The notes under the pieces: generated by a model | Database searches by the model: none | What the model was told of the DNA's origin: nothing | Seen by the model: only the letters and a program-made list of their open reading frames with translations | Source: a virus | Taxonomy: Duplodnaviria; Heunggongvirae; Uroviricota; Caudoviricetes | DNA length: 25,836 nt | Virus record (IMG/VR): IMGVR_UViG_2526164601_000026 | Strand: one strand, 5' to 3' | Shown: positions 1 through 19,011 of the stretch, in pieces | Numbering within the stretch: the stretch's first letter is position 1 | Layout: every line of letters begins with the position of its first letter | Translations under genes and position numbers: made by a program

Positions 1-43
1 AAAAATTTTTATGTTTTCAGTATAAAATTTCTGTTCCCTTATC

Positions 44-535
44 CTACATATTATCCTGACAGTGGGGATACATAGAAGCATAGGAAAAAAGTACTAGATC
101 TAGTTCAAACGTTTCTTTCATGCCATCCATGGTTATGGAGGTACTCAGTAACCCACGATGGGCCAGAGATTCTACTCCAGTCATTGGGTTATCAAGCTTA
201 TTCATTTGCCCCCATGTCATAACTGAACTGCCATGTTTTACAAAGTGCATCACCACTTCTTTTTCACTGTCAGTTAGGGAGTGATAAAGCGCTGATAGTC
301 GATTTTTTGCGGCTTCCTCCTCTTTGCGGGTAATAATTCGCTGATAGATTCCTCCGGTTATAACTTTTACCACTGGAAAAGTTATAACAAAGGAAAATAA
401 CGTTATCACATTATCGGAATATATTAGATAACAGGTCAGTCCAACTATCCCGGATAGACATATGGCAATATTGATGCTAAAGTCTTTCTCCGAATAAACG
501 CGGCCAAATAGTTTTTCGAGAACATCTTCTATCAA
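44..535 (-). CDS. Small inner-membrane protein, possibly SieB-family superinfection exclusion protein
   Basis: 163-aa ORF with two N-terminal hydrophobic helices (INIAICLSGIVGLTCYLIY; ITLFSFVITFPVVKVITGGIY) followed by a charged soluble domain. Size, topology and position at the early-left end of a lambdoid prophage fit SieB-like proteins. Family assignment is from memory, not a search. Confidence 0.45.
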   Translation of the reverse strand: MIEDVLEKLFGRVYSEKDFSINIAICLSGIVGLTCYLIYSDNVITLFSFVITFPVVKVITGGIYQRIITRKEEEAAKNRLSALYHSLTDSEKEVVMHFVKHGSSVMTWGQMNKLDNPMTGVESLAHRGLLSTSITMDGMKETFELDLVLFSYASMYPHCQDNM

Positions 536-841
536 AGTTATACTCCTTGTTGGGTACTAAAGACGCTTGAATATACAGCTAACATTACTTTACTAGGGAT
601 AATAATTGATTTTCTTACCGAACTATGGGTACTGAACGCTTTGGCATCTTTTATTACAGGTGGTTACTGCTGATGGCATAAGAGTATTATCAGTATTGGT
701 AGAAAAATAAAACAGAAATTTTCTGTAATACCCCATTTATCAAGACGCCTTTATATTTCTAACGTCTGTATCTGGCTAAGGGGCAGTCAGGTTTAGAACT
801 GTGCAATAGTTGCGTTTGTTCGAATCCGGCGCGGCCACTGT

Positions 842-3133
842 TCAGTACATTCCGTCCCAGTCCGGACGGTTGGTTTTTTTATGATGAAACCCGTTTACAG
901 GACGCCCTGTCGGGTGGTTATTGTCCTGTGGAAGCGTTAACAGGTTTATACCTGCTCTTTCTGCTCTCACTGATATCTGATTTTCCTCTTTTGTTTCAGG
1001 TAGTTCTGGTCTGTTCAGCGTGATATAGCGAATTCGTCGATCTTCCCGTGTGGTCGTTTTTAGCGTATTCACCGCTGTTTCCCACAAGGCACTTTCACGT
1101 GCGTTGATATCCGTGTCGTACTCTTCCAGCATTGCCATAGCCGCCTGACGTCCTGCAATGCGTTGCTGGAATGTATCCACGATCGTGTGCGGCTCTGTGC
1201 GAATTTTTCGTCTTTTTCTGGAGGGTTTTGCAGTCAGGACGCCAATGATGGCACTGACATTTTCCGGTGACGGTATTCGACGTTGAGTAGTACGGGGAAC
1301 AAGACGGCGGAGACGGTCCAGGCGTGGCGCATCCACGCTGATATACCTGTTTATAACCACGGGATCGCTGCTGCAGCTTTTCTCATCGTCAGGGATGAAG
1401 AATGATGCTGATGGTACGGTTTCTCCCCGGAAAATAGAAAAGAACTCGCCAGGATGAAGTTCAATCAACTCCTGAACATTTATCTTGCTTTCCATTAGGA
1501 TGCTGATTTGTGGGCTGTCAATCCATGATTCACCAAATATGCCGTCCTGACGCTGTAGGTTGTTCATTCTCGCCCTGGCTTCTTCACCGGCGGCGCTTTT
1601 CAGCGTTCTGGCTGTACTACCCTCGCTGACAATCCTGCCGGCAAATTTTGTCCCCGTGTTCTGCATCAGTGTTGCAGTATTCGTGGCTGTTGTCTGTCCT
1701 TCTATACGTTCCTGGTCCTGTGCCATCAAAATCAGAGCAAAATCCAGTGAACGCACCTGAGTGGCTTCCACAGCAATACGGTCCGTATAGTATGCCCCCA
1801 CTTCATCAAGGAAACACAGATAAGGGAAACGCCCCTTATATTTTTTGACTTCCAGTGCATCGGAATCAGTTCCTTCGAGGCGGTAGCCCAAATCACGGGC
1901 GAGAATCATACTTTTCTGGGTGATAAACATTCGTCCAAGAGCAGACGTTGTATGCGCTGATGTATCCAGAGCGGGGATCATTACCATCAGAATCCTGTCG
2001 CTGTGAATGCTGTCACGGATATCGATATCACCGGAATCTTCAGCAAAAATATCCCCGAATGCTTCCGTGAATGTGCTGAAAGTTTCAGAAAACTGCCCGG
2101 AGAGATAAGCATGTTGTTTTCTGGGTTCTTCCGTCCAGGCTGATGGTGTCCTGACCAGCGACAGGTCGAAACCGGGAACGTCCTGAAGGTAGTTACGTAA
2201 CGGTGCGATAGCTTCTTCCGGCCACTGATCATCGAGGCCACGACAGTAAAGTTTGGCCATCCCTTCGAGAGTCATATGTTCACGGAGCATCTGCAGCGAC
2301 ATTGTTTTGCCTTCGCGCACACACCAGAATTTAGTACCAAATACCAGTGCCTTATTCATGGCAATGGCCCGGGACTGCCACTCGCCCCCCTGGACGTTCT
2401 GGGGCAGCATTGACTGCATTGTCTCCGCTGTGAATGCCTCAGTGCTGTAACAGAAGGGATTCCAGGTATTTGACTGAGGACGCGTTTTTTCACCACTCAG
2501 AATGATTTCACTGCGGGATTTTCCTCCGTTCATGAAGTTAATGACTTCCACATCGTCTTCACGTCCAAAGCGTCTGGCCAGATACCAGATCGTTCTTGCC
2601 GTATCATTCTGTGCCTTGCCATCGACAAGGGTGAATCCTCTTGCCCAGCAAAGTGGGTTAATCGCCCAGGCAAAGATGGTTTCCGTTTTACCGCCACCGG
2701 TGGTGGCGAAAAACATTATATGGCGGGTCAGATCGTCCATACTCAGCCATAACTCCCTGCCAATATCCCTGACGCGTTGATAACCAACATAGAATATGCC
2801 GCTGGCCGGTGATTCCAGAATGACCTCATACTGGAACAGGGTTGGCCAGAAGCTGAAAAGACTTCTTTTAATCATTCTGTCCTGTGACGGGTCAGCACAT
2901 TCCAGCGTCATGGGCATACGAAGAGGGCAGCGCCATCGCTGCAGACTAAATACCAGCATCGTTATCAGTGTGAACAACAGACATGCCGGTAATGCAAGTG
3001 GCCAGATAAAACTGGCCACAAGACTTGCCACCAGGCAAAAGCCATAGATATTGAGACTCTGGAGTGCATTCCAGACAGGATTTCCCCAGGCTGTACGGTG
3101 TAAAAGCTCGGGGTTAACGCGATGTTCACTCAT
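842..3133 (-). CDS. Type IV coupling protein-like P-loop ATPase (VirD4/TraD/DotL-like; resembles TrbC of IncI1 plasmids)
   Basis: 763-aa ORF. Two N-terminal TM helices (FCLVASLVASFIWPLALPACLLFTLITMLVFSL), Walker A FFATTGGGKTE, Walker B-like LCFLDEVG. Start overlaps the stop of the upstream gene by 8 nt, indicating translational coupling. Third gene of a three-gene operon. Confidence 0.7.
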   Translation of the reverse strand: MSEHRVNPELLHRTAWGNPVWNALQSLNIYGFCLVASLVASFIWPLALPACLLFTLITMLVFSLQRWRCPLRMPMTLECADPSQDRMIKRSLFSFWPTLFQYEVILESPASGIFYVGYQRVRDIGRELWLSMDDLTRHIMFFATTGGGKTETIFAWAINPLCWARGFTLVDGKAQNDTARTIWYLARRFGREDDVEVINFMNGGKSRSEIILSGEKTRPQSNTWNPFCYSTEAFTAETMQSMLPQNVQGGEWQSRAIAMNKALVFGTKFWCVREGKTMSLQMLREHMTLEGMAKLYCRGLDDQWPEEAIAPLRNYLQDVPGFDLSLVRTPSAWTEEPRKQHAYLSGQFSETFSTFTEAFGDIFAEDSGDIDIRDSIHSDRILMVMIPALDTSAHTTSALGRMFITQKSMILARDLGYRLEGTDSDALEVKKYKGRFPYLCFLDEVGAYYTDRIAVEATQVRSLDFALILMAQDQERIEGQTTATNTATLMQNTGTKFAGRIVSEGSTARTLKSAAGEEARARMNNLQRQDGIFGESWIDSPQISILMESKINVQELIELHPGEFFSIFRGETVPSASFFIPDDEKSCSSDPVVINRYISVDAPRLDRLRRLVPRTTQRRIPSPENVSAIIGVLTAKPSRKRRKIRTEPHTIVDTFQQRIAGRQAAMAMLEEYDTDINARESALWETAVNTLKTTTREDRRIRYITLNRPELPETKEENQISVRAERAGINLLTLPQDNNHPTGRPVNGFHHKKTNRPDWDGMY

Positions 3134-4196
3134 GGCCAGACTCGCTGTCGGTGGTTTTCAGGAATAAATTAAGCGTGCCAGTTTCCTGCAGAATTCCAGT
3201 AGGCAGATGCCAGCCCGTGTCGGACAGCACCCATGGGGTACCGGCAAATCCGAACTTACGGAAGGCGACATTGTTAACATCAATCGCAGCTCTGGCTGCT
3301 TTCAGGCATGTTTCATCTGCAGGCGTTGTTTCTTCTGATGGCGTCATCATTCCGTTATCTGCGGAATACAGTCGGTGCCAGCTGGCAGCACGTTTCTGAG
3401 CATCTTTTTCACACAGCAGTGGTGCCACACGGTCGGTGGATTCCTCTCCACCAATAACTGAAACCGGGTAGATAACGACATTGAAGTCGCTGGCCAGGCG
3501 TTTTAAGGCCGGCTCCAGAAGTCTGCAGTTAGGACAGGCAGGATCGAGAAATGCGAACAGGGTTCGTTCATGACCGGATGACAGGTTGATGGTAAACATG
3601 CCCCGATCGGCGTTCCGCTTCAGAACAGTAGCCAGATTATGTCGCGCAGCTGCGGCTTCCGGATTTTTGCTTGTGATTGTTTTCTCCGGTACCTGGACGT
3701 CTTTTTTCGGGGGAACCGGGAGTTGAATGCCTTCATTTAATGGCACAGTGTGATTCAGGTGAGGGGGAAGCAGTCGTGGCTCACCTGCTGTCTGTACTGC
3801 TTCAGGCGTTGTATCATCCCAGAATACACGATCAACATAGCGGAACAGAGAGAAGCCAATCGTTGCCATTACGAACAGCACAACGCTGGCGATTATGCCA
3901 CGGAACAAAGGTGTTCTGCTGAAGCGGCGTTCCATCAGATATTCAAGGCGCAGGCAGGAATCAATAGCTGTAAGTATCTGGTCAGCGTTATGCTCCTGTT
4001 TATCAATCAGGACGGTTTCTCTGTTACGGGTGCCCATGGCGTCAAAGGCTATATGAATCAGTTGATTATTTCGTGTTACCAGCCCTGACAGGGCATCCCG
4101 TGGAAGGACGGCAATAATTTCTGTCCTGCCATCCGGCCAGATTGCCTGCACGGAAATATGTTTTGCAATGCGTGTTGCAAAGTACTCGATTGTCAT
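3126..4196 (-). CDS. Membrane-anchored thioredoxin-fold protein with CxxC motif (DsbA/DsbC-like; TrbB-like)
   Basis: 356-aa ORF. Single internal TM helix (LFRGIIASVVLFVMATIGFSLF) and C-terminal FLDPACPNC thiol-disulfide motif. A GGAG RBS lies in the 18-nt spacer after the upstream gene. Confidence 0.65.
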   Translation of the reverse strand: MTIEYFATRIAKHISVQAIWPDGRTEIIAVLPRDALSGLVTRNNQLIHIAFDAMGTRNRETVLIDKQEHNADQILTAIDSCLRLEYLMERRFSRTPLFRGIIASVVLFVMATIGFSLFRYVDRVFWDDTTPEAVQTAGEPRLLPPHLNHTVPLNEGIQLPVPPKKDVQVPEKTITSKNPEAAAARHNLATVLKRNADRGMFTINLSSGHERTLFAFLDPACPNCRLLEPALKRLASDFNVVIYPVSVIGGEESTDRVAPLLCEKDAQKRAASWHRLYSADNGMMTPSEETTPADETCLKAARAAIDVNNVAFRKFGFAGTPWVLSDTGWHLPTGILQETGTLNLFLKTTDSESGHE

Positions 4197-4214
4197 TTTC
4201 AGTTCTCCGGATAA

Positions 4215-5423
4215 TCAGAATTCGTTGTCTGTAGCAGGTGTGCGGGGCAGGATGTCGTCGGTGAGGGACCAGTTGGTCAGGATGCGGCGTTTCCGGTCGC
4301 GATCTGGTTGTGGTTCATCCCAGATAAGACCGAGACTGAGCATATCCCGCCGTAAGCCTTCCACCGCTTCATCAACACAGGGTTCAGGGCAGGGAAGACC
4401 AAAACGCATGGCTTCGGCCTCTGCACGTGCAACGGCCACCACGCCAGCGCCTTCAATAAATCCTTTCGTGGTATTGGCGCGGTGTAATGCATAAAACAGC
4501 GTCCTGTCCACGCCTTTCAGCCAAATCCAGTTGGGTGGCGTAAGCCGCAGGTCATGTGCATACAGCCAGACCAGCCCACTGCGGACGTAGCGATGTTGTT
4601 TCAGCCATTGCTGTGCTCCGTTGCTTTTAATCACTCTCTGGAAAGCTGATTTGGCCAGTGAATAAACAGGGGTACAGAATTTCCCACTGTCCCGTTTGCT
4701 TTTAATTCTGCATGAGAGGTTCAGTGTATCCATGAGCTTTAATGCTGCCTTACGATCATCCAGGAAATACTGAAGACCAAATATGGCAAAGAGCGCTTTT
4801 TCATGTGGTGCCATGTCTTTCCAGGACGTTAAAGGTTTACCCAACTGGGCCATGAAACATCGTCTTGCAGCTGCAACATCGAGCTGCATATTGGTGATGA
4901 GAGTATGCTGCTCGACAAATGCTTCCGGGGTGAGAGCAACCCGCCGTTCAGGTCGTTTGCCACCATGAAAGAGTTTTTCCGGATCACCATCTGCCAGTAC
5001 AGGGGCGATAGCAGGGGACAACGAAGCAAAGATGTGTGGCAGTCGGGTAATATCTACTGGTCTGCGGGTGAAACGACTTTGTCCCGGATGTTGATACCAC
5101 TCCCACAAACACCAGAGTGTCACAGGTAAGAGGTACATCCACAGAATACCTATGGTCTGCTCCATGACGTTAACCCACTGGCTATAGCTTATGTTGGCGG
5201 CGTTGTTACCGGTCATGGCAAGCAGGTTGTATCGTGGTGCTGCATAGTTATGAAATGGTCCCCAGTCAACCAGTCCCCATAAGGTATGAAGAATCAGGCA
5301 GCTGGCGTAAACCACTTCCGGCAAGAATAACCATATAACGAATAGCAGCAGGATAAGAAGGACACCAACAGCGCCCCATATCTGCATAGGATCTTCTGCG
5401 ACAGGCTGTCGATTGTAAGACAT
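4215..5423 (-). CDS. Inner-membrane protein (DotM/IcmP-like; TrbA-like), first gene of the coupling-module operon
   Basis: 402-aa ORF. N-terminal TM helices (GAVGVLLILLLFVIWLFLPEVVYASCLILHTLWGLV; IGILWMYLLPVTLWCLW) then a soluble domain. GGAG RBS 8 nt upstream of ATG. Family assignment is by architecture and gene order only. Confidence 0.5.
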   Translation of the reverse strand: MSYNRQPVAEDPMQIWGAVGVLLILLLFVIWLFLPEVVYASCLILHTLWGLVDWGPFHNYAAPRYNLLAMTGNNAANISYSQWVNVMEQTIGILWMYLLPVTLWCLWEWYQHPGQSRFTRRPVDITRLPHIFASLSPAIAPVLADGDPEKLFHGGKRPERRVALTPEAFVEQHTLITNMQLDVAAARRCFMAQLGKPLTSWKDMAPHEKALFAIFGLQYFLDDRKAALKLMDTLNLSCRIKSKRDSGKFCTPVYSLAKSAFQRVIKSNGAQQWLKQHRYVRSGLVWLYAHDLRLTPPNWIWLKGVDRTLFYALHRANTTKGFIEGAGVVAVARAEAEAMRFGLPCPEPCVDEAVEGLRRDMLSLGLIWDEPQPDRDRKRRILTNWSLTDDILPRTPATDNEF

Positions 5424-5583
5424 GACAAAGTCTCCATTTCTGGAATTTAAATCAAACGGAAAGGTTAAAAATTTATTTGCAGGCGATAAGAGCTAACCAG
5501 AGGAATTAGCCGTGCGATAAAAGGATTGTTGCAGATACGAAAGTCGTTAGAATAGCTGCGGGCGCTTGAGGCTGTATGCCGAA

Positions 5584-7366
5584 AGCGTTTTGTGGACGGT
5601 ATACAGCAGAAAGCCCCTGGAGATTTTTTTATCAATCAACCAAGGGCTCTACTGTAATGCCTAGACAACATTATAGTAGCCCGATAACCGCCGGAAGGCA
5701 ATGGAGGGGCTATGATGTGTTAACACCAAGCTGTAATGTCCCCTTTCGTAACCATTCTAAAATGTCCCCACGACAATTCTCTGGGGGAGTTTTTCTATGA
5801 TCAAAGAGACTGTTACGATGAGTCATAAGGAACTCCACCGACTTCAGATTATTCAGGAGTCAATTAATCGACATATTACTCAGGAACAAGCTGCGGCACG
5901 CATTGGCATTTCTATTCGGCAGGTTAAACGTCTGGTGCAACGGTATAGAAATGAAGGGCCTTCTGGTCTGGTTTCCCCCCGACGTGGAAAGCGTCCTAAT
6001 AATTCCTTTCTACTGATTCAGAGCAACAGTAATTTCACTCCTCAAAGGCCGTTACGCTGATTTTGGACCTACGTTTGCGTGCGAAAAATTGCGTGAGATA
6101 CACGGTTTATCTTTATCCGTTGAAACTCTCAGAAAGTGGATGATAGAAGAGGGGTTATGGCGTGAACGCCGTCGTAAAATTGCCCGTATATATCAACGCC
6201 GCATGCGACGACCATCTTACGGTGAACTGATCCAGATTGATGGCTCACCTCATGACTGGTTTGAAAATCGAGGCCCCAGATGTACACTGATCGTTTTCAT
6301 TGATGATGCCACCAGTGCGTTGATGGCGTTGCGTTTTGTGCCTGCTGAAACAACCCGGGCTTACATGGAAACCCTCCGGGGTTACCTTAATGATCATGGC
6401 GTACCGCTCGCTCTCTACTCTGATAGACACAGTATATTCAGGGTAAATAACCCAGAGCGGGAAGGTGAGCTGACCCAGTTCACTCGTGCGATAAAGACAC
6501 TGGGCATCGAGCCAATCCATGCCAACAGCCCGCAGGCAAAAGGGCGGTAGAGCGCGCCAATCAGACACTACAGGACAGGCTGGTCAAAGAAATGCGGCTT
6601 CAGAATATCAGTGATATTGAAACAGCAAATGCATGGTTGCCGACCTTTATTGAAGCCTATAACAACCGGTTCGCTACGTCGCCTCGTACTACTGATAATG
6701 CTCATCTTGATGTGCACCATTCTGAAGAGGAACTGGGTTATATCTTCAGCCTACAGGCGAAGCGCGTTCTGTCTAAAAATCTCACTTTCCAGTACAAAAG
6801 CAGTGCGTTTCAGGTACGCAGTGAGGGCCGGGGATATCGACTTAGGCATTCGGTTGTTACTGTATGCGAGAACTTTGACGGTGAAATTAACGTTCTGTAT
6901 GACGGGAAAGCGCTGGGCTGGGAAAAGTATGTTGATGGCCCGGAGCCTATACCACTGGATGATGAAAAGAGTGTCCATGAACGAGTGGATAATGCCCGTA
7001 TTGATTTACGCTCAAAATACTATGTTAAACCTAAAGCTGACCATCCCTGGCTTACGCGCCGAACGCAAAGTCATCAGCAAGTTAAGCCCCCGAAGTTACC
7101 TAAAAAGAAGCCTGATCCCGATAAAAAAGATTGAAACCAAGATCGATTCGGTTGAGTGCATATCCATTCATAGGGTAGATTCTTAAGTCGCGTTTCTGGT
7201 GTTCATTTTCGGGTGGTTTGTTACTTGTTTTACCGGGGATATGCCAGAAACGCGCTGAGTCAGTCTGGGCGGTGCGCGTAATGAGGCGTTATGGCAAATA
7301 GCCTATGCTAATGTCCGCTAAGAGCAAGAAGCGGAAGTTGGCAGTTTGTGGACTGTCCCCACAAAA
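5584..7366 (+). mobile_element. Degenerate insertion sequence (approximate boundaries)
   Basis: Encloses the frameshifted transposase. Imperfect inverted similarity between the left end (gttttgtggacgg, ~5584) and the reverse complement of the right end (ttttgtggggacag, ~7345-7366). Boundaries are uncertain and no target-site duplication was identified. Confidence 0.3.
5797..7134 (+). pseudogene. DDE (rve-type) transposase with N-terminal HTH, split into three frames by two frameshifts
   Basis: ORFs 5797-6060, 6089-6550 and 6592-7134 are consecutive pieces of one ~445-aa transposase (HTH ...IGISIRQVKRLVQRY...; integrase core ...LIQIDGS...IVFIDDATS...). Frame breaks near 6035-6060 (T run) and 6545-6552 (gggcggtag, G run). 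Family guess ISNCY/IS481-like, not verified. Confidence 0.65.
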
Positions 7367-7532
7367 GTGACTACAGAAATAGTTGCAATTCATAATTGAT
7401 CATGGGTTGTCAGTTAAACTCGTGGCGATTTAAATAGACTAATTGGGAGTGCGTCCATTACTTATATCTTGTAATGTTAACTATCAGAAATGATACAAAG
7501 ATAATATGTCTTTAAAGAAAAGGCTGATGGCG

Positions 7533-7555
7533 AAAAGTGGCCCGATGAGGGCCAC
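7533..7555 (-). terminator. Putative rho-independent terminator downstream of flxA
   Basis: Hairpin gtggccc-gatga-gggccac, followed on the minus strand by TTTTCGCC. Confidence 0.35.
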
Positions 7556-7565
7556 AATACGGCTG

Positions 7566-7901
7566 TCACTTAGACGTAAATATCAATGGTGCCAGCGGTA
7601 TTTGTATCGTCTTTTTCTCTTCTTTTTTATCAGGCTGAACTGTCGCGTCTTCATTCTTTTTCTCTGCCTGCTGCCTTAACAACTGCTCCAGTTGAGCCCA
7701 GAGGCTTTCAATTTGCTTCTGTACCAATGCAGCCATTTCTTTTTTCTGCTGTGTCGTCATCCCCTCTTCCGATGAGATTTTCCCAAGCTTTTCAGTCAGC
7801 ACCTGAATTTGTCTTGTGATTTTGGCTATTTCTGATGTTCCTTCCGGGGCGGAGTTGTTTGAAATAACGGTTGAGGTATTTCCCTGAATTGTGACAGACA
7901 T
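7566..7901 (-). CDS. flxA: FlxA-like protein (prophage gene of the flagellar regulon)
   Basis: 111-aa ORF (MSVTIQGNTSTVISNNSAPEGTSEIAKITRQ...) matching my recollection of Qin-prophage FlxA. AGGAG RBS 7 nt upstream of ATG. Sigma-28 promoter immediately upstream. Confidence 0.65.
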   Translation of the reverse strand: MSVTIQGNTSTVISNNSAPEGTSEIAKITRQIQVLTEKLGKISSEEGMTTQQKKEMAALVQKQIESLWAQLEQLLRQQAEKKNEDATVQPDKKEEKKTIQIPLAPLIFTSK

Positions 7902-7924
7902 AGATTTCTCCTTTTAAAAAAGCA

Positions 7925-7951
7925 CTATCGGCATGCACAAAAAAATCTTTA
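7925..7951 (-). promoter_or_regulatory. Sigma-28 (FliA)-type promoter for flxA
   Basis: Minus strand reads TAAAGATT-N11-GCCGATAG against consensus TAAAGTTT-N11-GCCGATAA. The -10 element ends about 24 nt upstream of the flxA ATG. Confidence 0.55.
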
Positions 7952-8397
7952 ATCGTATTTCTTGTGTCATTAATTGTTTGATGTTCAGATTGTTTTCCTC
8001 GCGGGCTGGCGCGCCTCAGAAAGTAAAGCTTGTTGACAGGGGTAAACGTTCGGCAATAATTTTCTGCCGCATGCGGGTGTTGCATAAAACGTGCTACGTT
8101 CCTTTATCGACAGGTCAGGTCACCGCTCACCCGCCGACGAGAAAGCAACACTGACATGCTAAAGCAAAAAATAGATGAATAAGTTGAGTTGTGCATATGT
8201 AGCCTGACCGTCACAAAGTATATGGTGTCTGTACCAGTAAGATGATGGCCGGACTCTTTAAAAACGAGCTGACCTGCACAATACAGGATTGGACTTAGCA
8301 ATGGCTGCTCCTGGCACAAAGCGGACAGTGATCACCGTTCTTACGACTACTTTCTGACTTCCTTCGTGACTTGCCCTAAGCATGTTGTAGTGCGATA

Positions 8398-8424
8398 CTT
8401 GTAATGACATTTGTAATTACAAGA
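8398..8424 (+). promoter_or_regulatory. relBE operator/promoter region
   Basis: gtaatgacatttgtaattacaagagg, with the palindrome ttgtaattacaa, directly upstream of the relB ATG; matches the known relO architecture. Confidence 0.45.
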
Positions 8425-8434
8425 GGTGTAAGAC

Positions 8435-8673
8435 ATGGGTAGCATTAACCTGCGTATTGACGATGAACTTAAAGCGCGTTCTTACGCCGCGCTTGAAAAA
8501 TGGGTGTAACTCCTTCTGAAGCGCTTCGTCTCATGCTCGAGTATATCGCTGACAATGAACGCTTGCCGTTCAAACAGACACTCCTGAGTGATGAAGATGC
8601 TGAACTTGTGGAGATAGTGAAAGAACGGCTTCGTAATCCTAAGCCAGTACGTGTGACGCTGGATGAACTCTGA
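8435..8673 (+). pseudogene. relB: RelB antitoxin, frameshifted as given (A5 run at 8496-8500)
   Basis: Translation MGSINLRIDDELKARSYAALEKWV then stop. The rest of RelB (GVTPSEALRLMLEYIADNERLPFKQTLLSDEDAELVEIVKERLRNPKPVRVTLDEL) continues in the +1 frame. One A appears to be missing relative to the K-12 gene as I recall it. Confidence 0.75.
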
Positions 8674-8961
8674 TGGCGTATTTTCTGGATTTTGACGAGC
8701 GGGCACTAAAGGAATGGCGAAAAGCTGGGCTCGACGGTACGTGAACAGTTGAAAAAGAAGCTGGTTGAAGTACTTGAGTCACCCCGGATTGAAGCAAACA
8801 AGCTCCGTGGTATGCCTGATTGTTACAAGATTAAGCTCCGGTCTTCAGGCTATCGCCTTGTATACCAGGTTATAGACGAGAAAGTTGTCGTTTTCGTGAT
8901 TTCTGTTGGGAAAAGAGAACGCTCGGAAGTATATAGCGAGGCGGTCAAACGCATTCTCTGA
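8673..8961 (+). pseudogene. relE: RelE mRNA-interferase toxin, frameshifted as given (A4 run at 8720-8723)
   Basis: ATG overlaps the relB stop (ATGA). MAYFLDFDERALKEWRK, then the frame is lost; the remainder (...KKKLVEVLESPRIEANKLRGMPDCYKIKLRSSGYRLVYQVIDEKVVVFVISVGKRERSEVYSEAVKRIL) is in another frame (ORF 8749-8961). Confidence 0.75.
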
Positions 8962-9032
8962 ACCAAAGCATGACATCTCTGTTTCGCACCGAAGGTGACA
9001 CTTCTGCTTTGCGTTGACAGGAGAAGCAGGCT

Positions 9033-9188
9033 ATGAAGCAGCAAAAGGCGATGTTAATCGCCCTGATCGTCATCTGTTTAACCGTCATAGTGACGGCACT
9101 GGTAACGAGGAAAGACCTCTGCGAGGTACGAATCCGAACCGGCCAGACGGAGGTCGCTGTCTTCACAGCTTACGAACCTGAGGAGTAA
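9033..9188 (+). CDS. hokD: Hok-family type I toxin (HokD/RelF-like)
   Basis: 51-aa ORF MKQQKAMLIALIVICLTVIVTALVTRKDLCEVRIRTGQTEVAVFTAYEPEE, with a single TM helix. Sits downstream of relBE as in the Qin prophage. Confidence 0.8.
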   Translation: MKQQKAMLIALIVICLTVIVTALVTRKDLCEVRIRTGQTEVAVFTAYEPEE

Positions 9189-9255
9189 GAGACCAGGCGG
9201 GGGAGAATCCCTCGCCACCTCTGATGTGTCAGGCATCCTCAACGCACCCGCACTT

Positions 9256-9282
9256 AACCCGCTTCGGCGGGTTTTGTTTTTT
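9256..9282 (+). terminator. Rho-independent terminator (3' end of hok transcript)
   Basis: aacccgc-ttcg-gcgggtt hairpin followed by TTGTTTTTT. Confidence 0.5.
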
Positions 9283-9354
9283 CCTAGCATTCTGGTTTAC
9301 AATTCGCACGCCAGCCTGAACAACTGGCACCTGCTGCGCCAGCAGAGACAACCG

Positions 9355-9633
9355 ATGGCGCACGATACCAAATTACACAATTCTGATGATTCTGCCGTCT
9401 TTGCCAGCAGGCACGGGCGGCGTTCCCGCACTTTCAAATCTGACTGGTTCCAGCATCCCCCATGCACTGAAGAACAGGCCGAGTGGCTAATTCAGTGCTA
9501 CCGCAGACACGGATACGAGATTAAGAAAGCCCTCAGCCTCGATTATCGTCACTGGATAATCTCCGTCAGGCTTCCTTACTCCGAGCGCCCACCGCGTCCG
9601 TCCCGCACATTCCAGCAACGCATCTGGAGGTAA
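9355..9633 (+). CDS. Rem-like small prophage protein
   Basis: In-frame ATG downstream of the hok terminator; MAHDTKLHNSDDSAVFASRHGRR.... The track ORF 9226-9633 would read through the terminator, so the shorter start is preferred. Position matches rem in Qin; function unknown. Confidence 0.4.
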   Translation: MAHDTKLHNSDDSAVFASRHGRRSRTFKSDWFQHPPCTEEQAEWLIQCYRRHGYEIKKALSLDYRHWIISVRLPYSERPPRPSRTFQQRIWR

Positions 9634-9634
9634 C

Positions 9635-10684
9635 GTGCGGGTATTACTTCGACCTGTTCTGGTACCGGAACTCGGGCTGGTGATCGTTAAGCCGGGCCGT
9701 GAATCCATGCCGGTATTCCACAATACCCGGGTACTGGTGGAGCCGGAACCGAAAAGCATGCGTAATCTGCCGTCCGGGGTTGTTCCTGCCGTTCACCAGC
9801 CGCTAGTGGAAGACAAAACATTGCTGCCGTTTTTCAGTAACGCACGGGTGATTCGTGCTGCTGGTGGTGCTGGTGCATTGTCTGACTGGCTGTTGCGCCA
9901 TATTAAATCCTGCCAGTGGCCACACGGCGATTATCATCACAGCGAAACCGTCATTCACCGTTATGGTACCGGCGCAATGGTGTTGTGCTGGCACTGCGAC
10001 AACCAGCTGCGTGACCAGACATCCGAATCACTCGAGCAACTTGCTCATCAAAACCTGTCAGCATGGATGATTGACGTCATCGGTCACGCAATAAGCGGTA
10101 CGCAGGAGCGTGAATTATCTCTGGCTGAATTATCCTGGTGGGCGGTCTGCAATCAGGTGGCGGACGCGCTTCCGGAGGCAGTATTACGTCGTTCTCTGGG
10201 GTTACGTGCGGAAAAAATCCGCCCCTTGTACCGCGAAAGCGACATCGTACCGGGAGAGCAGACCGCCATCAGCATACTGAAACAGCGCACAAAAAATCTT
10301 GCGCCGCTGCCTCACGCCCACCAGCAACAGAACCCACCACAGGAAAAGACGGTGGTCAGCATTGCCGTTGATCCTGAGCCTCCGGAATCTTTCATGAAAC
10401 GACCTAAACGTCGCCGCTGGGTTAACGAGAAATACACACGCTGGGTGAAGACACAGCCGTGTGCGTGTTGTGGTAAGCCAGCCGACGATCCCCATCACCT
10501 GATTGGTCATGGTCAGGGCGGAATGGGGACAAAATCTCACGATATTTTCACGCTACCGCTGTGTCGGGAGCATCACAACGAGCTTCATGCGGATCCGCTG
10601 GCGTTCGAAGAAAAGCATGGTTCTCAGGTTGATTTAATTTTTCGTTTTCTTGATCACGCCTTTGCAACTGGCGTGCTTGGGTAA
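9635..10684 (+). CDS. DUF968/YdfU-like protein with HNH-like Cys/His motif
   Basis: 349-aa ORF with C-terminal CACCGKPADDPHHLIGHG...CREHHNELH motif. Position between rem and rusA/Q as in Qin-type prophages. Confidence 0.6.
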   Translation: MRVLLRPVLVPELGLVIVKPGRESMPVFHNTRVLVEPEPKSMRNLPSGVVPAVHQPLVEDKTLLPFFSNARVIRAAGGAGALSDWLLRHIKSCQWPHGDYHHSETVIHRYGTGAMVLCWHCDNQLRDQTSESLEQLAHQNLSAWMIDVIGHAISGTQERELSLAELSWWAVCNQVADALPEAVLRRSLGLRAEKIRPLYRESDIVPGEQTAISILKQRTKNLAPLPHAHQQQNPPQEKTVVSIAVDPEPPESFMKRPKRRRWVNEKYTRWVKTQPCACCGKPADDPHHLIGHGQGGMGTKSHDIFTLPLCREHHNELHADPLAFEEKHGSQVDLIFRFLDHAFATGVLG

Positions 10685-10696
10685 AAGAGGTGACTG

Positions 10697-11053
10697 ATGC
10701 TCATAGATTTGGTTTTACCTTACCCGCCGACGGTGAACACTTACTGGCGACGCCGTGGCAGCACATATTTTATCTCGGAGGAGGGAAAGCGTTATCGCCG
10801 GGCTGTGGCGCTTATTGTTCGCCAGCAGCGGCTGAAATTAAGCCTGTCCGGAAGGCTGGCGATAAAGGTGATTGCAGAGCCACCGGATAAGCGTCGTCGC
10901 GACCTGGACAACATTCTGAAAGCACCGCTGGATGCGCTGACGCATGCGGGAGTGTTAATGGACGATGAGCAGTTTGATGAAATCAATATCGTTCGTGGTC
11001 AGCCAGTATCTGGTGGACGTCTGGGGGTGAAGATTTACCCCATAATGCATTAA
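10697..11053 (+). CDS. rusA: RusA-family Holliday junction resolvase
   Basis: 118-aa ORF containing the RusA-like core RRRDLDNILKAPLDALTHAGVLMDDEQ. AAGAGG RBS upstream. Confidence 0.75.
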   Translation: MLIDLVLPYPPTVNTYWRRRGSTYFISEEGKRYRRAVALIVRQQRLKLSLSGRLAIKVIAEPPDKRRRDLDNILKAPLDALTHAGVLMDDEQFDEINIVRGQPVSGGRLGVKIYPIMH

Positions 11054-11067
11054 GAGCAGGTCAAAAA

Positions 11068-11889
11068 ATGAAACTGGAAGATTTACCGAAATACTACTCC
11101 CCAAAATCCCCTGGCCTGACCGATGCATCGGCCTCAACGTCAAAAGATGCGCTGAGTATCACTGATGTGATGGCCGCGCAGGGCATGACACAGAATCGGG
11201 CTGAGATGGGTTTTTCTGCGTTCCTGGGGAAAATGGGCATCAGTATGAATGACAGGGCGCGGGCAACAGAATTACTGGCAGATTATGCACTCAGTCGGTG
11301 CGATCGTGTGGCGGCGTTGAGAAAACTTCCGGCAGAAATAAAACCGGTAGTGATGCGCATTATGGCTTCGTACGCTTTTGAGGATTATGCCCGCAGCGCA
11401 GCGAGTAAAAAGCAGTGCCCTTGTTGCTATGGGGAAAAATTTATTGAAAGCATAGTTTTTACAAACAAGGTCCAGTATCCGGATGGTAAGCCGCCGGTAT
11501 GGGCAAAGTGTACGAAAGGTGTGTATCCGTCTTACTGGGAAGAATGGAAAAAAGTCAGGGAGGTGGTAAAAGTTGCCTGTCCGGAGTGTGGCGGAAAGGG
11601 TGAGGTTTCCACCGCCTGTAAGGATTGCCGTGGGCGTGGTGTCGCCATTCATCGTGAAGAGTCGGTAAAACGTGGTATGCCTGTTATCAGAGACTGCCAG
11701 CGTTGTGGTGGTCGTGGCTATGAAAGACTACCATCAACGGAGGCATTTAATGCTATATGCGAGGTGACAAACCAGATAACACGCGCGTCATGGGAAAAAA
11801 CAGTTAAGAAATTTTATGATGCGCTGGTGACCCGGTTTGATATTGAAGAAGCATGGGCTGAGCGGCAGTTAAAAAAGGTAACTAGGTAA
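11068..11889 (+). CDS. Late-gene antiterminator Q-like protein
   Basis: 273-aa ORF with Cys-rich zinc-binding motifs (CPECGGKGEVSTACKDCRGRG; CQRCGGRG). Located immediately upstream of the PR'/tR'-like region and the tRNAs. Confidence 0.6.
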   Translation: MKLEDLPKYYSPKSPGLTDASASTSKDALSITDVMAAQGMTQNRAEMGFSAFLGKMGISMNDRARATELLADYALSRCDRVAALRKLPAEIKPVVMRIMASYAFEDYARSAASKKQCPCCYGEKFIESIVFTNKVQYPDGKPPVWAKCTKGVYPSYWEEWKKVREVVKVACPECGGKGEVSTACKDCRGRGVAIHREESVKRGMPVIRDCQRCGGRGYERLPSTEAFNAICEVTNQITRASWEKTVKKFYDALVTRFDIEEAWAERQLKKVTR

Positions 11890-11894
11890 CAAGG

Positions 11895-11922
11895 TTGATT
11901 TTTCCGGAATCTGTGGTAAATT
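11895..11922 (+). promoter_or_regulatory. Candidate late promoter PR' (sigma-70 type)
   Basis: TTGATT-16 nt-TAAATT just downstream of Q stop and about 50 nt upstream of a terminator. Confidence 0.35.
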
Positions 11923-11969
11923 CGTCATAACGATGGGCGTTTTATGCCTGACGTTAGAAGAGTTTCTAC

Positions 11970-11995
11970 AACCCGCCGCTGAGCGGGTTTTTTAT
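11970..11995 (+). terminator. tR'-like rho-independent terminator
   Basis: aacccgc-cgctga-gcgggtt hairpin followed by TTTTTTATT. Confidence 0.5.
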
Positions 11996-12032
11996 TGCGA
12001 AATTAATTACGGACCGTTATTATTCTGCTCCC

Positions 12033-12108
12033 GGCCCTTTAGCTCAGTGGTGAGAGCGAGCGACTCATAATCGCCAGGTCGCTGGTTCAAATCCAGCAAG
12101 GGCCACCA
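12033..12108 (+). tRNA. ileZ: tRNA with CAU anticodon, ileX/ileZ-like (tRNA-Ile2)
   Basis: 76-nt cloverleaf: acceptor GGCCCTT/AAGGGCC, D-arm GCTCAGTGGTGAGAGC, anticodon loop CTCATAA, T-arm GCTGGTTCAAATCCAGC, encoded CCA. Closer to ileX than to elongator Met. Confidence 0.85.
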
Positions 12109-12209
12109 TCACAAACCGCCATTAGCTTATCAGGAAGAGCAGACGACACGATAACAGGGTTGTTGGTGCGGGGGGCGGGTCCCCGATGGCGATCCATTAT
12201 CGGTATTCA

Positions 12210-12286
12210 GCGTTGTTAGCTCAGCCGGACAGAGCAATTGCCTTCTAAGCAATCGGTCACTGGTTCGAATCCAGTACAGCGCGCCA
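12210..12286 (+). tRNA. argO: tRNA-Arg (UCU anticodon)
   Basis: 77-nt cloverleaf: acceptor GCGTTGT/ACAGCGC, anticodon stem-loop ATTGC-CTTCTAA-GCAAT, T-arm ACTGGTTCGAATCCAGT, encoded CCA. Confidence 0.85.
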
Positions 12287-12396
12287 TATTCATTCTTCCA
12301 GATTCCTTCCGGCAGAGCCTTATACTGAAATATACCTGGCTCAGGATATTGTTGAAAATATTATATGTTTGTCAAAAATAAAAGTTCTGTTAAGTA

Positions 12397-12750
12397 TTGA
12401 TTGAATATTTGTTATACGGTCTAATGGTTTTTTCAGCATTAAATATTTATCATTCATATGGTGTGGGTAGAGTGAATATTGATGAGGCGTCGGGGTGTTT
12501 CATCCTTAGGCAGCGTATTGATATAGTCAATGCAGCACGAGCAAAGGCCTTCAGCCGTTTGACAGTTTTGTTCTGTACTCCTGATCGTCTTTCGGGAAGA
12601 GACGTTATTATTCTGAATAGTGATGCTATACAGAGGGTTTGCGATGAGTTCATGGTTGCTAATTCAGAATTATTTGCTCTTGTTCAGGAGTACAACAGAA
12701 TAGCCAGGACCTGTGGTATGGATGAACTTCGGATTACTCATCTGGGGTAG
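12397..12750 (+). CDS. Hypothetical protein (cargo gene downstream of phage tRNAs)
   Basis: 117-aa ORF starting at TTG; the first ATG is at 12424. No clear RBS and no family recognised. AT-rich context. Confidence 0.3.
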   Translation: MIEYLLYGLMVFSALNIYHSYGVGRVNIDEASGCFILRQRIDIVNAARAKAFSRLTVLFCTPDRLSGRDVIILNSDAIQRVCDEFMVANSELFALVQEYNRIARTCGMDELRITHLG

Positions 12751-13141
12751 ATACATATCTGGATTATCACCTGTTACGGTAAAAAGTGATTGCTTACTGT
12801 TTTTGTGAATGGCATTGCAGCAGCCGGATAATGTCAGTGCTGGCTGACGGTGTGCTGGTGGCGGGTGTGGTGGTTGTTGCTTTCCCGTTGCTGAAAAAGA
12901 AAACGCCAGACTGTTAGCCGGGTATCAGTTAGCGGGAGAAATTTTTAAATACTTCACAATTCAGGCGGTTGACTGTTGTCTGGTTTGCGGGGAGTTTGTT
13001 AAAAGAAACTGGCATGGTGAATCCCCCTGTGCGGAGGGGCAATCAGCGAGTAGGTATATGGGATAATCGCGGATTCAGGTGCTGGTACTGAATTCACCGG
13101 GAGGCACCCGGCACCATGCAATGGCACATAGCGCCACTCTC

Positions 13142-13178
13142 CAGCCCCTCTCCGGAGGGGCTGTTTATATTGATTTTG
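13142..13178 (+). terminator. Rho-independent terminator-like hairpin
   Basis: cagcccctc-tccg-gaggggctg GC-rich stem followed by TTTATATTGATTTTG. Confidence 0.4.
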
Positions 13179-13197
13179 TCAGATGTGAGTAAACTCC

Positions 13198-13533
13198 TTA
13201 TGGATTTTGTTGTTTTAGCCCATAAGGACATATTTGCAGAGTGCAACGGTTATTAAAGCATTCATTCAATACGTTATCTGTATTTGTAGGGCATTCCTGG
13301 CTGTTTTTGATTAAATTCCAGAATGTTTTATTGAATGGTACTATGTTGTAAATGGTTACAGGTAGCACTTTGTTATTGAGCATGATACCTGTGTGAGTCA
13401 GTGTAAATATACTTTCAGGAGGTAAGAAAGCATCCGATTGATACCAGATTATTAATTTTATTTTACTCCATATGACTGAAAAAGATATTCCGCATGATGG
13501 CTGGATAACTGTATCAATCACAATCCACTTCAT
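13198..13533 (-). CDS. Hypothetical Cys-containing protein (AT-rich cargo gene)
   Basis: 111-aa ORF with AAGGA RBS 7 nt upstream of ATG. Strongly AT-rich; no recognisable family. Confidence 0.45.
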
Positions 13534-13777
13534 TTACTTTCCTTGTTTATGCCTTGCTGGTGATGTTCTGAAAAGTATAAATGATATTTTTGAATTAAAC
13601 CATAGAGCAGAATTATTTTTCTGATGTTGTTTATTGTTTATTTAAATACAGGGTGGTTTATATCTCGTCTTGTAGTTTATCCATGCATATCTGCTTGATA
13701 ATCAGGTTTTTATTTAAGGTATGGTTTTGTGTTTTTTCTGTATTACATGTCAGGTATTTTAAAGAATTATTTTTCAG

Positions 13778-15685: not shown

Positions 15686-15857
15686 AAGGCCTTATATGTT
15701 TGTAGATGATACTTATATTTGGCAGTACATTTTCTGACAGACAGTGACGGGTGTTGTCAAGATATTGTGTCATTTATAACCTGAATCAGGGGGGCCGGAA
15801 TGTTATCTGGCATTTTTAGCAGAGCCTGAATGCCATAATCACGGCTCCCGGAGTTGG

Positions 15858-15892
15858 CCGTCAGTGGGTGACACTGGCGGTTTTTTTGTTTT
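15858..15892 (+). terminator. Rho-independent terminator upstream of lysis cassette
   Basis: ccgtcagtg-ggtga-cactggcgg hairpin followed by TTTTTTTGTTTTT. Confidence 0.5.
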
Positions 15893-15937
15893 TCTTTACT
15901 TTCATTTTCTGTCGGCGGTGACGGAGACATACATCAG

Positions 15938-16144
15938 ATGGAAAAAATCACAACAGGTGTGTCATACACCACGTCAGCGGTGGGGACGGGATACTGGTTA
16001 CTGCAGCTGCTGGACAAAGTCTCTCCGTCCCAGTGGGTGGCAATAGGTGTGCTGGGAAGTCTGCTGTTTGGCCTGCTGACGTATCTGACTAACCTGTATT
16101 TCAAAATCAGAGAGGACCGTCGTAAGGTGGCGCGGGGAGAGTAG
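15938..16144 (+). CDS. S: Class II holin / pinholin (S21-like)
   Basis: 68-aa [71 protein letters not shown] with two TM helices. GGAG RBS 11 nt upstream. Confidence 0.85.
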
Positions 16145-16399
16145 TCGATGAATAAACAATACGAACTGGTTGTAAAATGAATATTTCTAACTGAAAAAAC
16201 GTTCCATGAGGTAAGAAAAGGTCACAGGCAATCAATAACAGGACGTGATGAAAGACCCTTGCATTTGTGCGCTTTCTCTTTAGATAGCAGCAGATACTGA
16301 AAATCTGAGTTGTCGGGGAGTCAGGGATACAGCTGTGCAAGAGTTGGTCATTGTGATTCCATTGAAATCCTGTATGCCATGAAGGGCAGGATTTTATGG

Positions 16400-16714
16400 C
16401 TACCTGAGCTTTGGTGATAGTAAGTTGAAAATTCGCATTTTTTGCTGACATGCGTAACGAGAATCCCATAAGCAGGGAGGACTTAATTCTTCATTAACCC
16501 ATGCGTTGATATTATGTTTCAGCCGTTGAAGCATCAGCGGTGTTAATGTTGTGGTAATAATATCCAGCGTTTTATGTGAGATCTTACCGTAAGGGTCTGC
16601 AAGAATGCTGCTTGTTGCTTCGTTATTATCTGCCATCAGAAGAAGTAACTCTGATTTAACGTTTTCTGTCATTAGTTGTAAAAATCTTCTGCGCAAACTT
16701 TCTTTACTGTTCAT
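16400..16714 (-). CDS. Hypothetical protein encoded antisense between holin and endolysin (possibly YdfR-like)
   Basis: 104-aa ORF in the 690-bp gap between S and R on the opposite strand. Weak RBS. Qin has a ~103-aa gene (ydfR) between its holin and endolysin, but homology is not verified. Confidence 0.3.
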   Translation of the reverse strand: MNSKESLRRRFLQLMTENVKSELLLLMADNNEATSSILADPYGKISHKTLDIITTTLTPLMLQRLKHNINAWVNEELSPPCLWDSRYACQQKMRIFNLLSPKLR

Positions 16715-16831
16715 TTATATGGCTTCATTTGTTGTAATCTGCTGCGTCTCAAGGGATATGTTTATGAGAGCGACCATGAGTGTTGGATTATATACCTAAC
16801 ATATCAAGGGATTAGAAATCGATAAATCCCC

Positions 16832-17365: not shown

Positions 17366-17454
17366 CAGAATATTTTCCTGAAAAATGACGTTGGCCAACG
17401 CGGGTGGATAACACGAAATCCTGAAAACTGGTAAAACCTAAGTGAATAAAAGTA

Positions 17455-17495
17455 AAAACCCCGTTTGTTGGCAGCAAGCGGGGTTTTGTGTTTTC
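17455..17495 (+). terminator. Terminator-like extended hairpin between endolysin and Rz
   Basis: aaaaccccg...cggggtttt stem with inner ttg-gcag-caa helix, followed by GTGTTTTCT. Confidence 0.35.
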
Positions 17496-17700
17496 TGACC
17501 TTGAGCAAGGCAAGGGAGAAATTATGGGTAGGGAGGTACTTTCCCTGTGAGGAAGTATAAAAGATTCTTTCTGAGGTTGTCCATTATGAAAGGCATTGAA
17601 GTGGAGACGCCAGCCAGGCTGGATTTAACAAGAGCGGCAGCTTTTGCCATTCGTATTGTGGCCATTGCTGTTCTGGTCTGGGCAATCCGTTGGTGGTGAT

Positions 17701-18948: not shown

Positions 18949-18984
18949 AAAATATCTGAGAGAGTTATTGCCTGTTACCATAAG

Positions 18985-19011
18985 AAAAAGCGACTTTAGT
19001 GGTCGCTTTTT
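18985..19011. terminator. Bidirectional rho-independent terminator
   Basis: AAAAA-gcgac-tttagtg-gtcgc-TTTTT, between the convergent PerC-like gene (+) and the RHH gene (-). Confidence 0.5.

Follow-up and report, generated by a model that had tools for sequence, protein, structure and literature searches.

The three minus-strand genes at 842–5423 are, judged by their sequence, the canonical trbABC conjugation operon of an IncI1 (R64-type) plasmid, an operon that is already known. The window, that is, the whole 25,836-bp stretch of DNA analysed here, is the complete draft contig AIGO01000012.1 of E. coli DEC9E (O26:H11). We consider it very likely (a probability of roughly 90%) that the window holds the IncI1 trbABC operon on a contig that stops before nikB, and that the assembler probably left the plasmid along a path through a shared transposon. 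The operon looks stranded in a prophage because this short draft contig crosses a transposon that is common to the plasmid and to chromosomal prophages. A textbook conjugation operon has thus acquired odd surroundings.

The trbABC operon and its protein families

All three open reading frames are intact. The gene trbA (4215–5423, minus strand, 402 aa) encodes a membrane protein of the DotM/IcmP kind that partners the coupling protein, trbB (3126–4196, minus strand, 356 aa) a membrane-anchored accessory protein with a CxxC motif and a putative thioredoxin fold, and trbC (842–3133, minus strand, 763 aa) a DotL/IcmO-type type IV coupling protein ATPase. The spacer between trbA and trbB is 18 nt long (ttatccggagaactgaaa) and contains GGAG, and trbB and trbC overlap by 8 nt (ATGAGTGA). 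TrbA has a hydrophobic segment at residues 11–48. TrbB has one at residues 95–121 and carries CPNC at residue 221. In TrbC, an N-terminal hydrophobic segment (residues 26–66) is followed by the Walker A motif GGGKT at residue 146 and the Walker B motif FLDEVG at residue 441. The gene sizes, strand, coupling signals and motifs that an earlier, sequence-only reading of this DNA had reported were all found again.

TrbC passed the curated NCBIfam equivalog model NF041447 (TrbC_conju) with 1043.2 bits (cut-off 800). Residues 110–613 aligned with IcmO (DotL) in PDB 6sz9_A with E=2.4e-61. The protein shows the pattern of a type IV coupling protein, with an N-terminal membrane anchor and a P-loop NTPase carrying Walker A and B motifs. 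Two Pfam models stayed below their cut-offs, TraG-D_C with 18.7 bits (cut-off 22) and TrwB_AAD_bind with 13 bits (cut-off 20.5); TrbC falls into the divergent DotL branch, for which these models have poor coverage. TrbA matched the Pfam family PF23127 DotM_C (1.6e-49, 168.9 bits, cut-off 27) and the IcmP (DotM) chains in the PDB, both with its C-terminal domain (E=2e-8) and over nearly its full length (E=3e-7). Because it reached 75 bits with the NCBIfam equivalog DotM_IcmP_IVB, which has a cut-off of 230, TrbA counts as a relative rather than an equivalog. The matches of TrbB were weak, to Thioredoxin_2 (21.7 bits, cut-off 27), TraF and DsbG among families, and to ScsC, DsbP and DsbC-type structures in the PDB (E of about 0.015–0.02). 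A near-identical copy of trbB is annotated as IncI1-type TrbB in pDEC9B-1 (NZ_CP074761.1), a finished IncI1-type plasmid of 161 kb from E. coli DEC9B, a sister strain to DEC9E. The profile and structure matches bear out the suggestion that the trio is IncI1 trbA-trbB-trbC and that TrbA and TrbC are related to DotM and DotL.

The trbABC operon of the IncI1 plasmid R64 is credited to Furuya and Komano (1996) in PMC10286972, and according to the latter conjugation requires trbA and trbC, while loss of trbB lowers transfer. From homology and this published genetics, TrbC would be a DotL-type coupling ATPase that takes over the NikB-nicked, relaxase-bound strand and delivers it to the type IVB Tra secretion machine, with TrbA as its DotM-like membrane partner. 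TrbB, anchored in the membrane, may act as a thiol-disulfide (CxxC) accessory protein and make transfer more efficient.

IncI1 relatives and the ends of the plasmid segment

In a PLSDB search, window positions 822–5700 were 99.7% identical to IncI1 plasmids. At least 80% of this query was covered by 1,422 plasmids, and the identity was at least 99% in 934. Nearly all matching PLSDB plasmids (1,888 of 1,958) are typed as conjugative. Finished E. coli genomes contained 1,789 matching places, 1,756 of them on plasmids; IncI1 transfer regions also occur in chromosomes, at 33 of these places and at our locus L010. In the searched collection, 45,546 indexed blocks contain the exact TrbA protein. When ten contigs with this protein were sampled, all ten had the full arrangement of traU-W-X-Y/excA/pnd, trbABC and nikBA. 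In the ten sampled contigs the operon thus lay within complete transfer regions, an outcome that the sequence-only reading had itself named as a refutation, and the headline of that reading, a stranded coupling module inside a prophage early region, finds no support.

The plasmid pDEC9B-1 differs from the window by two substitutions in the trb operon and by three over positions 1–9023. In it, nikA-nikB directly adjoin trbC, excA-traY...traL lie beyond trbA, and the Tra type IVB machinery is present. By analogy with this sister strain, DEC9E itself probably carries nikAB and the tra genes as well. Because a few real sites differ, the DEC9E plasmid is not the same molecule as pDEC9B-1. IncI1 plasmids of 153–163 kb have been reported in related ST29 strains (PMC5592225), and the relatives suggest that the host plasmid in the DEC9E lineage would be the approximately 160-kb IncI1 plasmid of O26:H11 ST29 strains.

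At the left end of the window, plasmid sequence reaches the first base. That no relaxase or other T4SS gene accompanies the operon is literally true within the 25,836 bp. To call the operon stranded, as had been proposed, is nevertheless misleading: the contig is complete as deposited and ends approximately 100 bp short of the position of nikB in pDEC9B-1. An accessory cassette of 884 bp is inserted in the intergenic terminator between nikB and trbC, and its right-hand 821 bp make up positions 1–821 (minus strand). The cassette is foreign to canonical IncI1 plasmids, which match only from window position 822 on, and in pDEC9B-1 it is flanked by a 20–21-bp direct repeat, GAATCCGGCGCGGCCACTGTT. 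It contains an open reading frame of 163 aa with two TM segments (44–535), and a homologue in phage Ayreon is 57.5% identical. We rejected a SieB identity for this protein (Pfam match with E=0.016, below the cut-off; no match in PADLOC or PHROGs).

Upstream of trbA, positions 5560–5717 (plus strand) comprise the leader of pnd, a member of the hok family, together with its antisense (sok-type) part. This stretch matched Rfam RF01794 (sok) with 133.7 bits (gathering score 59), and the match stops precisely at 5717. Where the pnd leader of the window stops, canonical IncI1 sequence runs on into pndA (ATGCCACAG...). A transposon splits the leader from the toxin ORF.

The transposon and the join to phage DNA

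The transposon (5718–9019, plus strand) is a 3.3-kb transporter IS of the IS1202 family (ISEsa1-like) with inverted and direct repeats. It carries a broken transposase, ‘ydfW’, flxA, ydfV and relB-relE. Its terminal inverted repeats are TGTTAACACC... and TGTCAACGCA...; they agree at 19 of 26 positions and both begin with TGT, and they may also be written as TGTTAACACC... and ...GCGTTGACA. The direct repeat on either side of the element reads TGGAGGGGCTATGATG in pDEC9B-1 (16–17 bp) and GGAGAAGCAGGCTAT in chromosomes (15–16 bp). An intact transposase of 446 aa, with HTH_28/32 and rve_3 domains, is present at our locus L028. The IS1202 family is characterized by inverted repeats that start with TGT, a long target duplication (15–17 bp) and a transposase with HTH and DDE (rve) domains (bioRxiv 10.1101/2022.12.17.520857). 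The element shows these traits, with the transposase domains seen at L028. A second inverted repeat approximately 1.6 kb into the element was sought and none was found, and the element was therefore not read as a plain IS followed by unrelated DNA.

In the plasmid the element sits at the start of pndA, and in chromosomal Qin-like prophages at the start of hokD. Altogether, a relBE-carrying element of this family is inserted at the start codons of at least five different toxin genes of the hok family. Such targeting would account for the origin of the E. coli relBE-hokD operon and would be the second case of site-specific targeting in the IS1202 family. A relBE-carrying IS1202-family element at hok-family start codons makes this junction of separate interest.

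Positions 9020–25836 (plus strand) are the late region of a lambdoid prophage. The genes are hokD, DUF968, RusA, Q, two tRNAs, IraM, an esterase and lysis genes, followed by the terminase, portal, S49 protease and head decoration genes. The identity of this part is 99.7% with the B1_2 chromosome and 99.3% with that of DEC9B. At 3.19 Mb, the DEC9B chromosome has a prophage with no transposon upstream of hokD, and positions 9019–12000 are 100% identical to it, whereas the DNA to the right of the element is only 93.6–96.5% identical to the DEC9B prophage that bears the element. The 25,836-bp window has no repressor, integrase, replication or other early or immunity genes. The operon had been placed inside a prophage early region, where immunity genes would be expected; we rejected this setting, as the phage DNA is late DNA and lies the length of the 3.3-kb transposon away from trbA.

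The two flanks of the transposon do not match. The left flank is of the pnd (plasmid) type and the right flank is of the hokD (chromosomal) type, whereas in finished copies of the element the direct repeats on the two sides agree. The element in the window also has 12 private 1-bp indels, and there are none in 1–5717 or in 9019–15640. The frameshifts are single-base indels, mostly in homopolymers. Intact trb genes had been contrasted with six frameshifted genes elsewhere in the window. With the 12 private indels confined to the 3.3-kb repeat this contrast loses its meaning, and the frameshifts look like draft-sequence error in repeats rather than a sign that the trb genes were selectively kept. 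A search of finished E. coli records (20,395) and PLSDB plasmids (72,556) did not return the whole arrangement (at least 80% of the window), and a 44-mer spanning the junction of trbA and the transposon had no match in species-representative genomes.

Because the flanks are of different types and the 12 indels occur only in the element, the join is a chimera made in assembly or, at most, the product of recombination. The plasmid segment meets phage DNA only through the relBE-carrying transposon, which suggests an assembler path through the repeat. A chimera is the most likely origin of the join in DEC9E, with the sister strain DEC9B as our guide. True homologous recombination across the repeat is less likely, and we regard it as a doubtful though serious alternative. 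The contig would then be correct, and an IncI1 plasmid would have recombined with a lambdoid prophage by way of the shared transposon, giving either an integrated plasmid (Hfr-like) or a plasmid–prophage cointegrate. A crossover within the 3.3-kb repeat would leave the same mismatched flanks. The plasmid copy of the element in DEC9B and its chromosomal counterpart show 100% identity over 3.3 kb, which makes them well suited to homologous recombination, and the chromosomal IncI1 transfer regions described above are a precedent. However, the DNA on the right is of the DEC9B type without the element, and in a genome like that of DEC9B a simple crossover between plasmid and chromosome would have given the other hokD type. 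Within the contig, moreover, the element alone is poorly resolved, and the arrangement occurs in no finished genome or plasmid searched. If recombination did take place, oriT-nikAB-trbABC would be physically linked to the phage late region, and trbABC would still be an ordinary part of a complete transfer region beyond the left end, not a co-opted module. The proposal of an inert remnant of plasmid integration came closer to the truth than the other earlier hypotheses: the plasmid origin stands, but an intact plasmid and a chimeric contig are favoured over a remnant.

Two further hypotheses give the operon a function in the phage, and we consider both highly improbable. In one, it would be a prophage module co-opted for superinfection exclusion or for defence against phages or plasmids. 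TrbC does have a weak PADLOC match to mad8 (E=2e-16), and trbC is adjoined by the small two-TM ORF with its sub-threshold SieB match. The mad8 match amounts to 58 bits beside the 1043 bits of the TrbC equivalog match, and a defence identity of TrbC was rejected on this ground. TrbA and TrbB had no match in PADLOC, and none of the three proteins had one in PHROGs. Hundreds of IncI1 plasmids have a working conjugation operon with 99.7% DNA identity to the one here, whose prophage setting is not established. In the other hypothesis, a resident conjugative T4SS would recruit the prophage or its DNA through trbABC. What speaks for it is the physical adjacency in AIGO01000012.1, but this adjacency hangs on the route that a draft assembly took through a repeat. 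A coupling protein moves only DNA that carries the cognate oriT and relaxase in cis. In the relatives, both lie on the plasmid side, to the left of the window, and not in the phage. We retain the reading as an IncI1 operon on a draft contig that crosses a repeat. Before a module in a draft contig is called stranded, it should be compared with finished relatives and its repeat boundaries should be inspected.

Comparison with known systems

The structural counterpart of TrbC and TrbA is the type IVB coupling complex of the Legionella Dot/Icm system (PDB 6sz9, 7ovb and 6exa-e), in which TrbC corresponds to DotL (IcmO) and TrbA to DotM (IcmP). TrbC and TrbA are distant homologues of these proteins and serve DNA conjugation instead of effector secretion.

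The element resembles the ISTde1/ISEsa1-like ISs of the IS1202 family in its HTH and rve_3 transposase, the TGT starts of its inverted repeats and its 15–17-bp direct repeats. It differs from ISEsa1 itself (1,609 bp in ISfinder, no target duplication detected) by the presence of relBE and variable cargo, for a total of 2.6–6.1 kb.

The window and pDEC9B-1 share the 884-bp cassette, the transposon insertion and the left transposon junction. Past the transposon, pDEC9B-1 continues with pndA, hha, excA and traY, and the window instead with hokD and phage late genes. Compared with R64-type IncI1 plasmids, trbABC has the same genes in the same order, with the same sizes (402/356/763 aa) and coupling signals and with the pnd leader upstream of trbA. 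The differences are the 884-bp cassette between trbC and nikB and the 3.3-kb relBE transposon at the start of pndA, and both leave the three genes untouched.

The trbABC operon and its probable role in transfer

The operon consists of three minus-strand ORFs: trbA (4215–5423, 402 aa), trbB (3126–4196, 356 aa) and trbC (842–3133, 763 aa). An 18-nt spacer containing GGAG (ttatccggagaactgaaa) lies between the stop of the 402-aa ORF and the ATG of the 356-aa ORF, and the latter overlaps the 763-aa ORF by 8 nt (ATGAGTGA). Hydropathy placed N-terminal hydrophobic segments at residues 11–48 of TrbA, 95–121 of TrbB and 26–66 of TrbC. TrbB carries CPNC at residue 221, and TrbC carries GGGKT at residue 146 and FLDEVG at 441. 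Coordinates, sequence and hydropathy bear out the anatomy described in the sequence-only reading, including the three ORFs, spacer, overlap, Walker motifs and CxxC.

TrbC passes the NCBIfam equivalog TrbC_conju (1043 bits; cut-off 800) and aligns with the solved Legionella DotL/IcmO structure (E=2.4e-61). TrbA contains the DotM C-terminal domain (1.6e-49) and also aligns with DotM/IcmP structures. The profile matches of TrbB to thioredoxin, TraF and DsbG were all sub-threshold, and its structure matches to ScsC, DsbP and DsbC-type proteins were weak. The profile and structure searches that the sequence-only reading had proposed identify TrbC as DotL-type and TrbA as DotM-like, with weak or sub-threshold thioredoxin-type matches for TrbB. 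The DNA from 822 to 5700 shares 99.7% identity with many IncI1 plasmids. It matches 1,958 PLSDB records (934 at ≥99%; 1,888 typed as conjugative), and 1,756 of the 1,789 matching places in finished E. coli genomes are on plasmids. The sequence-only reading had pointed to a likeness to IncI1 trbABC; from the TrbC_conju, DotM/DotL and DNA matches, the trio is that operon itself, ordinary and already known. In the assembly collection, the exact TrbA protein turns up in 45,546 blocks. On the question whether the trio recurs in isolation, all ten sampled exact-TrbA contigs carry the full order traU-traW-traX-traY-excA...pndA / trbA-trbB-trbC / nikB-nikA.

Genetics of R64 and pMS7163B showed that conjugation needs trbA (with trbC) and that loss of trbB lowers it (PMC10286972). 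From homology and this literature, NikA and NikB would nick the plasmid at oriT. TrbC would act as a hexameric P-loop ATPase of the DotL type, with its N-terminal helices as anchor, and would link the relaxase–DNA complex with the Tra type IVB channel; the DotM-like TrbA is its probable membrane partner. TrbB, with a one-helix anchor and a CxxC motif in a putative thioredoxin-like domain, probably aids disulfide formation or isomerisation of transfer proteins, a role that would fit its non-essential but stimulatory part in transfer.

The defence reading and the neighbouring cassette

It had been proposed that the trio acts in defence, or lets the prophage be recruited by a type IV secretion system. 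PADLOC gave no family match for TrbA or TrbB, and PHROGs gave none for any of the three proteins. TrbC gave a weak match to PADLOC mad8 of the MADS defence system (58 bits, E=2e-16, residues 125–535), far below its TrbC_conju score, and was rejected as a defence protein. The mad8 match suggests shared P-loop ancestry of the MADS component and DotL-type coupling proteins. The neighbouring gene described as SieB-like (44–535, minus strand, 163 aa, two-TM) matches SieB at a sub-threshold E=0.016 and has no PADLOC or PHROGs match. It lies within an 884-bp low-GC cassette (window 1–821; 22109–22992 in L001, the stored locus of pDEC9B-1) that is inserted in the nikB/trbC intergenic terminator and flanked by a 20–21-bp direct repeat (GAATCCGGCGCGGCCACTGTT). 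The ORF is rare, occurring in two PLSDB plasmids; a homologue in phage Ayreon (57.5% identical) sits between side tail fibre and integrase genes. Neither proposal draws support from the PADLOC, PHROGs, neighbour or cassette data.

The contig and the plasmid–prophage join

AIGO01000012.1 (assembly GCA_000249975.2), from the draft genome of E. coli DEC9E, O26:H11 ST29 (PMC5592225), is 25,836 bp long and agrees fully with the window over its stored part; the window is therefore a complete short draft contig. Positions 1–9023 are present, with 3 substitutions and 14 single-base indels, on pDEC9B-1, a 161-kb plasmid in the finished genome of the sister strain DEC9B. There, nikB ends approximately 100 bp left of window position 1, and trbA is followed by pndA, hha, excA, traY...traN and then further T4SS genes. 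Other ST29 O26:H11 strains carry IncI1 plasmids of 153–163 kb (PMC5592225).

Positions 9019–25836 match chromosomal lambdoid prophage late regions (99.7% identical to strain B1_2, 99.3% to the DEC9B chromosome) and encode hokD, DUF968, RusA, Q, two tRNAs, lysis genes, terminase, portal and protease. The window contains no repressor, integrase or replication genes, so the description of a prophage early region was wrong. The two tRNA genes, downstream of Q, have anticodon CAT (annotated tRNA-Ile in relatives) and TCT (tRNA-Arg); the same stretch (12033–12286, 12983–13172) gives a full-length match to the sRNA family STnc100.

The plasmid and phage parts are separated by a 3,302-bp element (5718–9019) carrying an ISEsa1-family transposase (broken here), flxA, ydfV and relB-relE. 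It has pnd-type sequence on its left and hokD-type sequence on its right, which implies that a crossover, whether real or computational, took place within it. The plasmid and chromosomal DEC9B copies are 100% identical across the whole element, which is thus an exact 3.3-kb repeat. For 3 kb to the right of it, the window shares 100% identity with the DEC9B prophage at 3.19 Mb, whose hokD lacks an upstream element of this kind; identity to the element-carrying prophage is only 93.6–96.5%. The window's element copy has 12 single-base indels, mostly in homopolymers, that occur in none of six other copies compared; no such indels occur in the 5.7 kb leftward (1–5717) or the next 6.6 kb rightward (9019–15640). 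A search of 20,395 finished E. coli records and 72,556 plasmids found no instance of the whole arrangement. Judged from these sequences, two well-resolved segments were probably joined through a badly resolved repeat, giving a chimeric contig (about 65%). True recombination in DEC9E would produce the same mismatched flanks and is the less likely origin of the join. Under chimera and recombination alike, plasmid DNA begins at the contig's very first base. The locus is therefore the margin of a plasmid that continues past the window, an outcome that the sequence-only reading had itself named as refuting its proposal; the stranded look is a product of the contig.

The frameshifts affect transposase, ydfV, relB and relE in the element; in the late region they hit the large terminase and a few further sites. 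The single-base indels, mostly in homopolymers, cluster in repeated DNA (5747–8720, 15642–15792 and 20320–21613), with the 12 private indels in the element and others in the terminase genes. They are most likely draft-sequence errors in repeated DNA, and frameshifts in this draft may be sequencing or assembly errors (PMC5592225). The contrast drawn between intact trb genes and six frameshifted ones is no evidence of selective preservation in a decaying prophage.

The relBE-carrying element at hok-family genes

The terminal inverted repeats of the element (TGTTAACACCAAGCTGTAATGTCCCC and TGTCAACGCAAAGCAGAAGTGTCACC) are imperfect, matching at 19 of 26 positions, and both start with TGT. The pDEC9B-1 copy is flanked by a 16–17-bp direct repeat (TGGAGGGGCTATGATG) from the pndA start region, and copies in chromosomal Qin-like prophages by GGAGAAGCAGGCTAT from the hokD start region. 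These features fit the IS1202 family, which has TGT ends and, in one subgroup, 15–17-bp duplications (bioRxiv 10.1101/2022.12.17.520857). An Rfam sok match (5560–5717) ends exactly at the insertion point. In pDEC9B-1 (L001, 31189 onward) and two other finished IncI1 plasmids, the element interrupts the pnd post-segregational killing locus, leaving the leader/antisense part beside trbA (window 5560–5717) and the pndA toxin ORF directly downstream of relE.

Besides the window copy (5718–9019), we located copies at L001 27889–31189, at 9028–12328 of a further genome locus (L023), and in other genome loci (L013–L019, L026–L041). The exact left end occurs in 16 species-representative Enterobacteriaceae genomes. 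In 12–13 of 15 readable loci, the sequence flanking it on the outside is the ribosome-binding or start region of a hok-family gene. Seven of these loci, and the window, have a gathering-level sok match that runs exactly up to the element. The complete copies, each with direct repeats of its own, are 2.6, 4.5 and 6.1 kb (two loci) long. Cargo was examined in the 6.1-kb copy, where relBE again adjoins the right end. The ORFs just outside the right end (the left in one inverted case) encode five different Hok-type toxins. The element is a relBE-carrying, ISEsa1-like transporter IS of 2.6–6.1 kb with TGT-starting inverted repeats and 15–17-bp target duplications. It occupies the RBS or start codon in no fewer than five different genes for hok-family toxins: hokD, IncI1 pndA and three others.

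Integration of relBE into hokD has been remarked on earlier (PMC6379469); the literature searched contained no account of a transporter IS that carries relBE and targets hok genes. Insertion at the hokD start would account for the relBE-hokD (relBEF) operon and for the lack of a hokD leader in K-12. The position of pndA directly behind relE in pDEC9B-1 mirrors this relBE-hokD arrangement. ISEsa1 is listed in ISfinder at 1,609 bp with no target duplication detected, whereas the element described here has target duplications of 15–17 bp.
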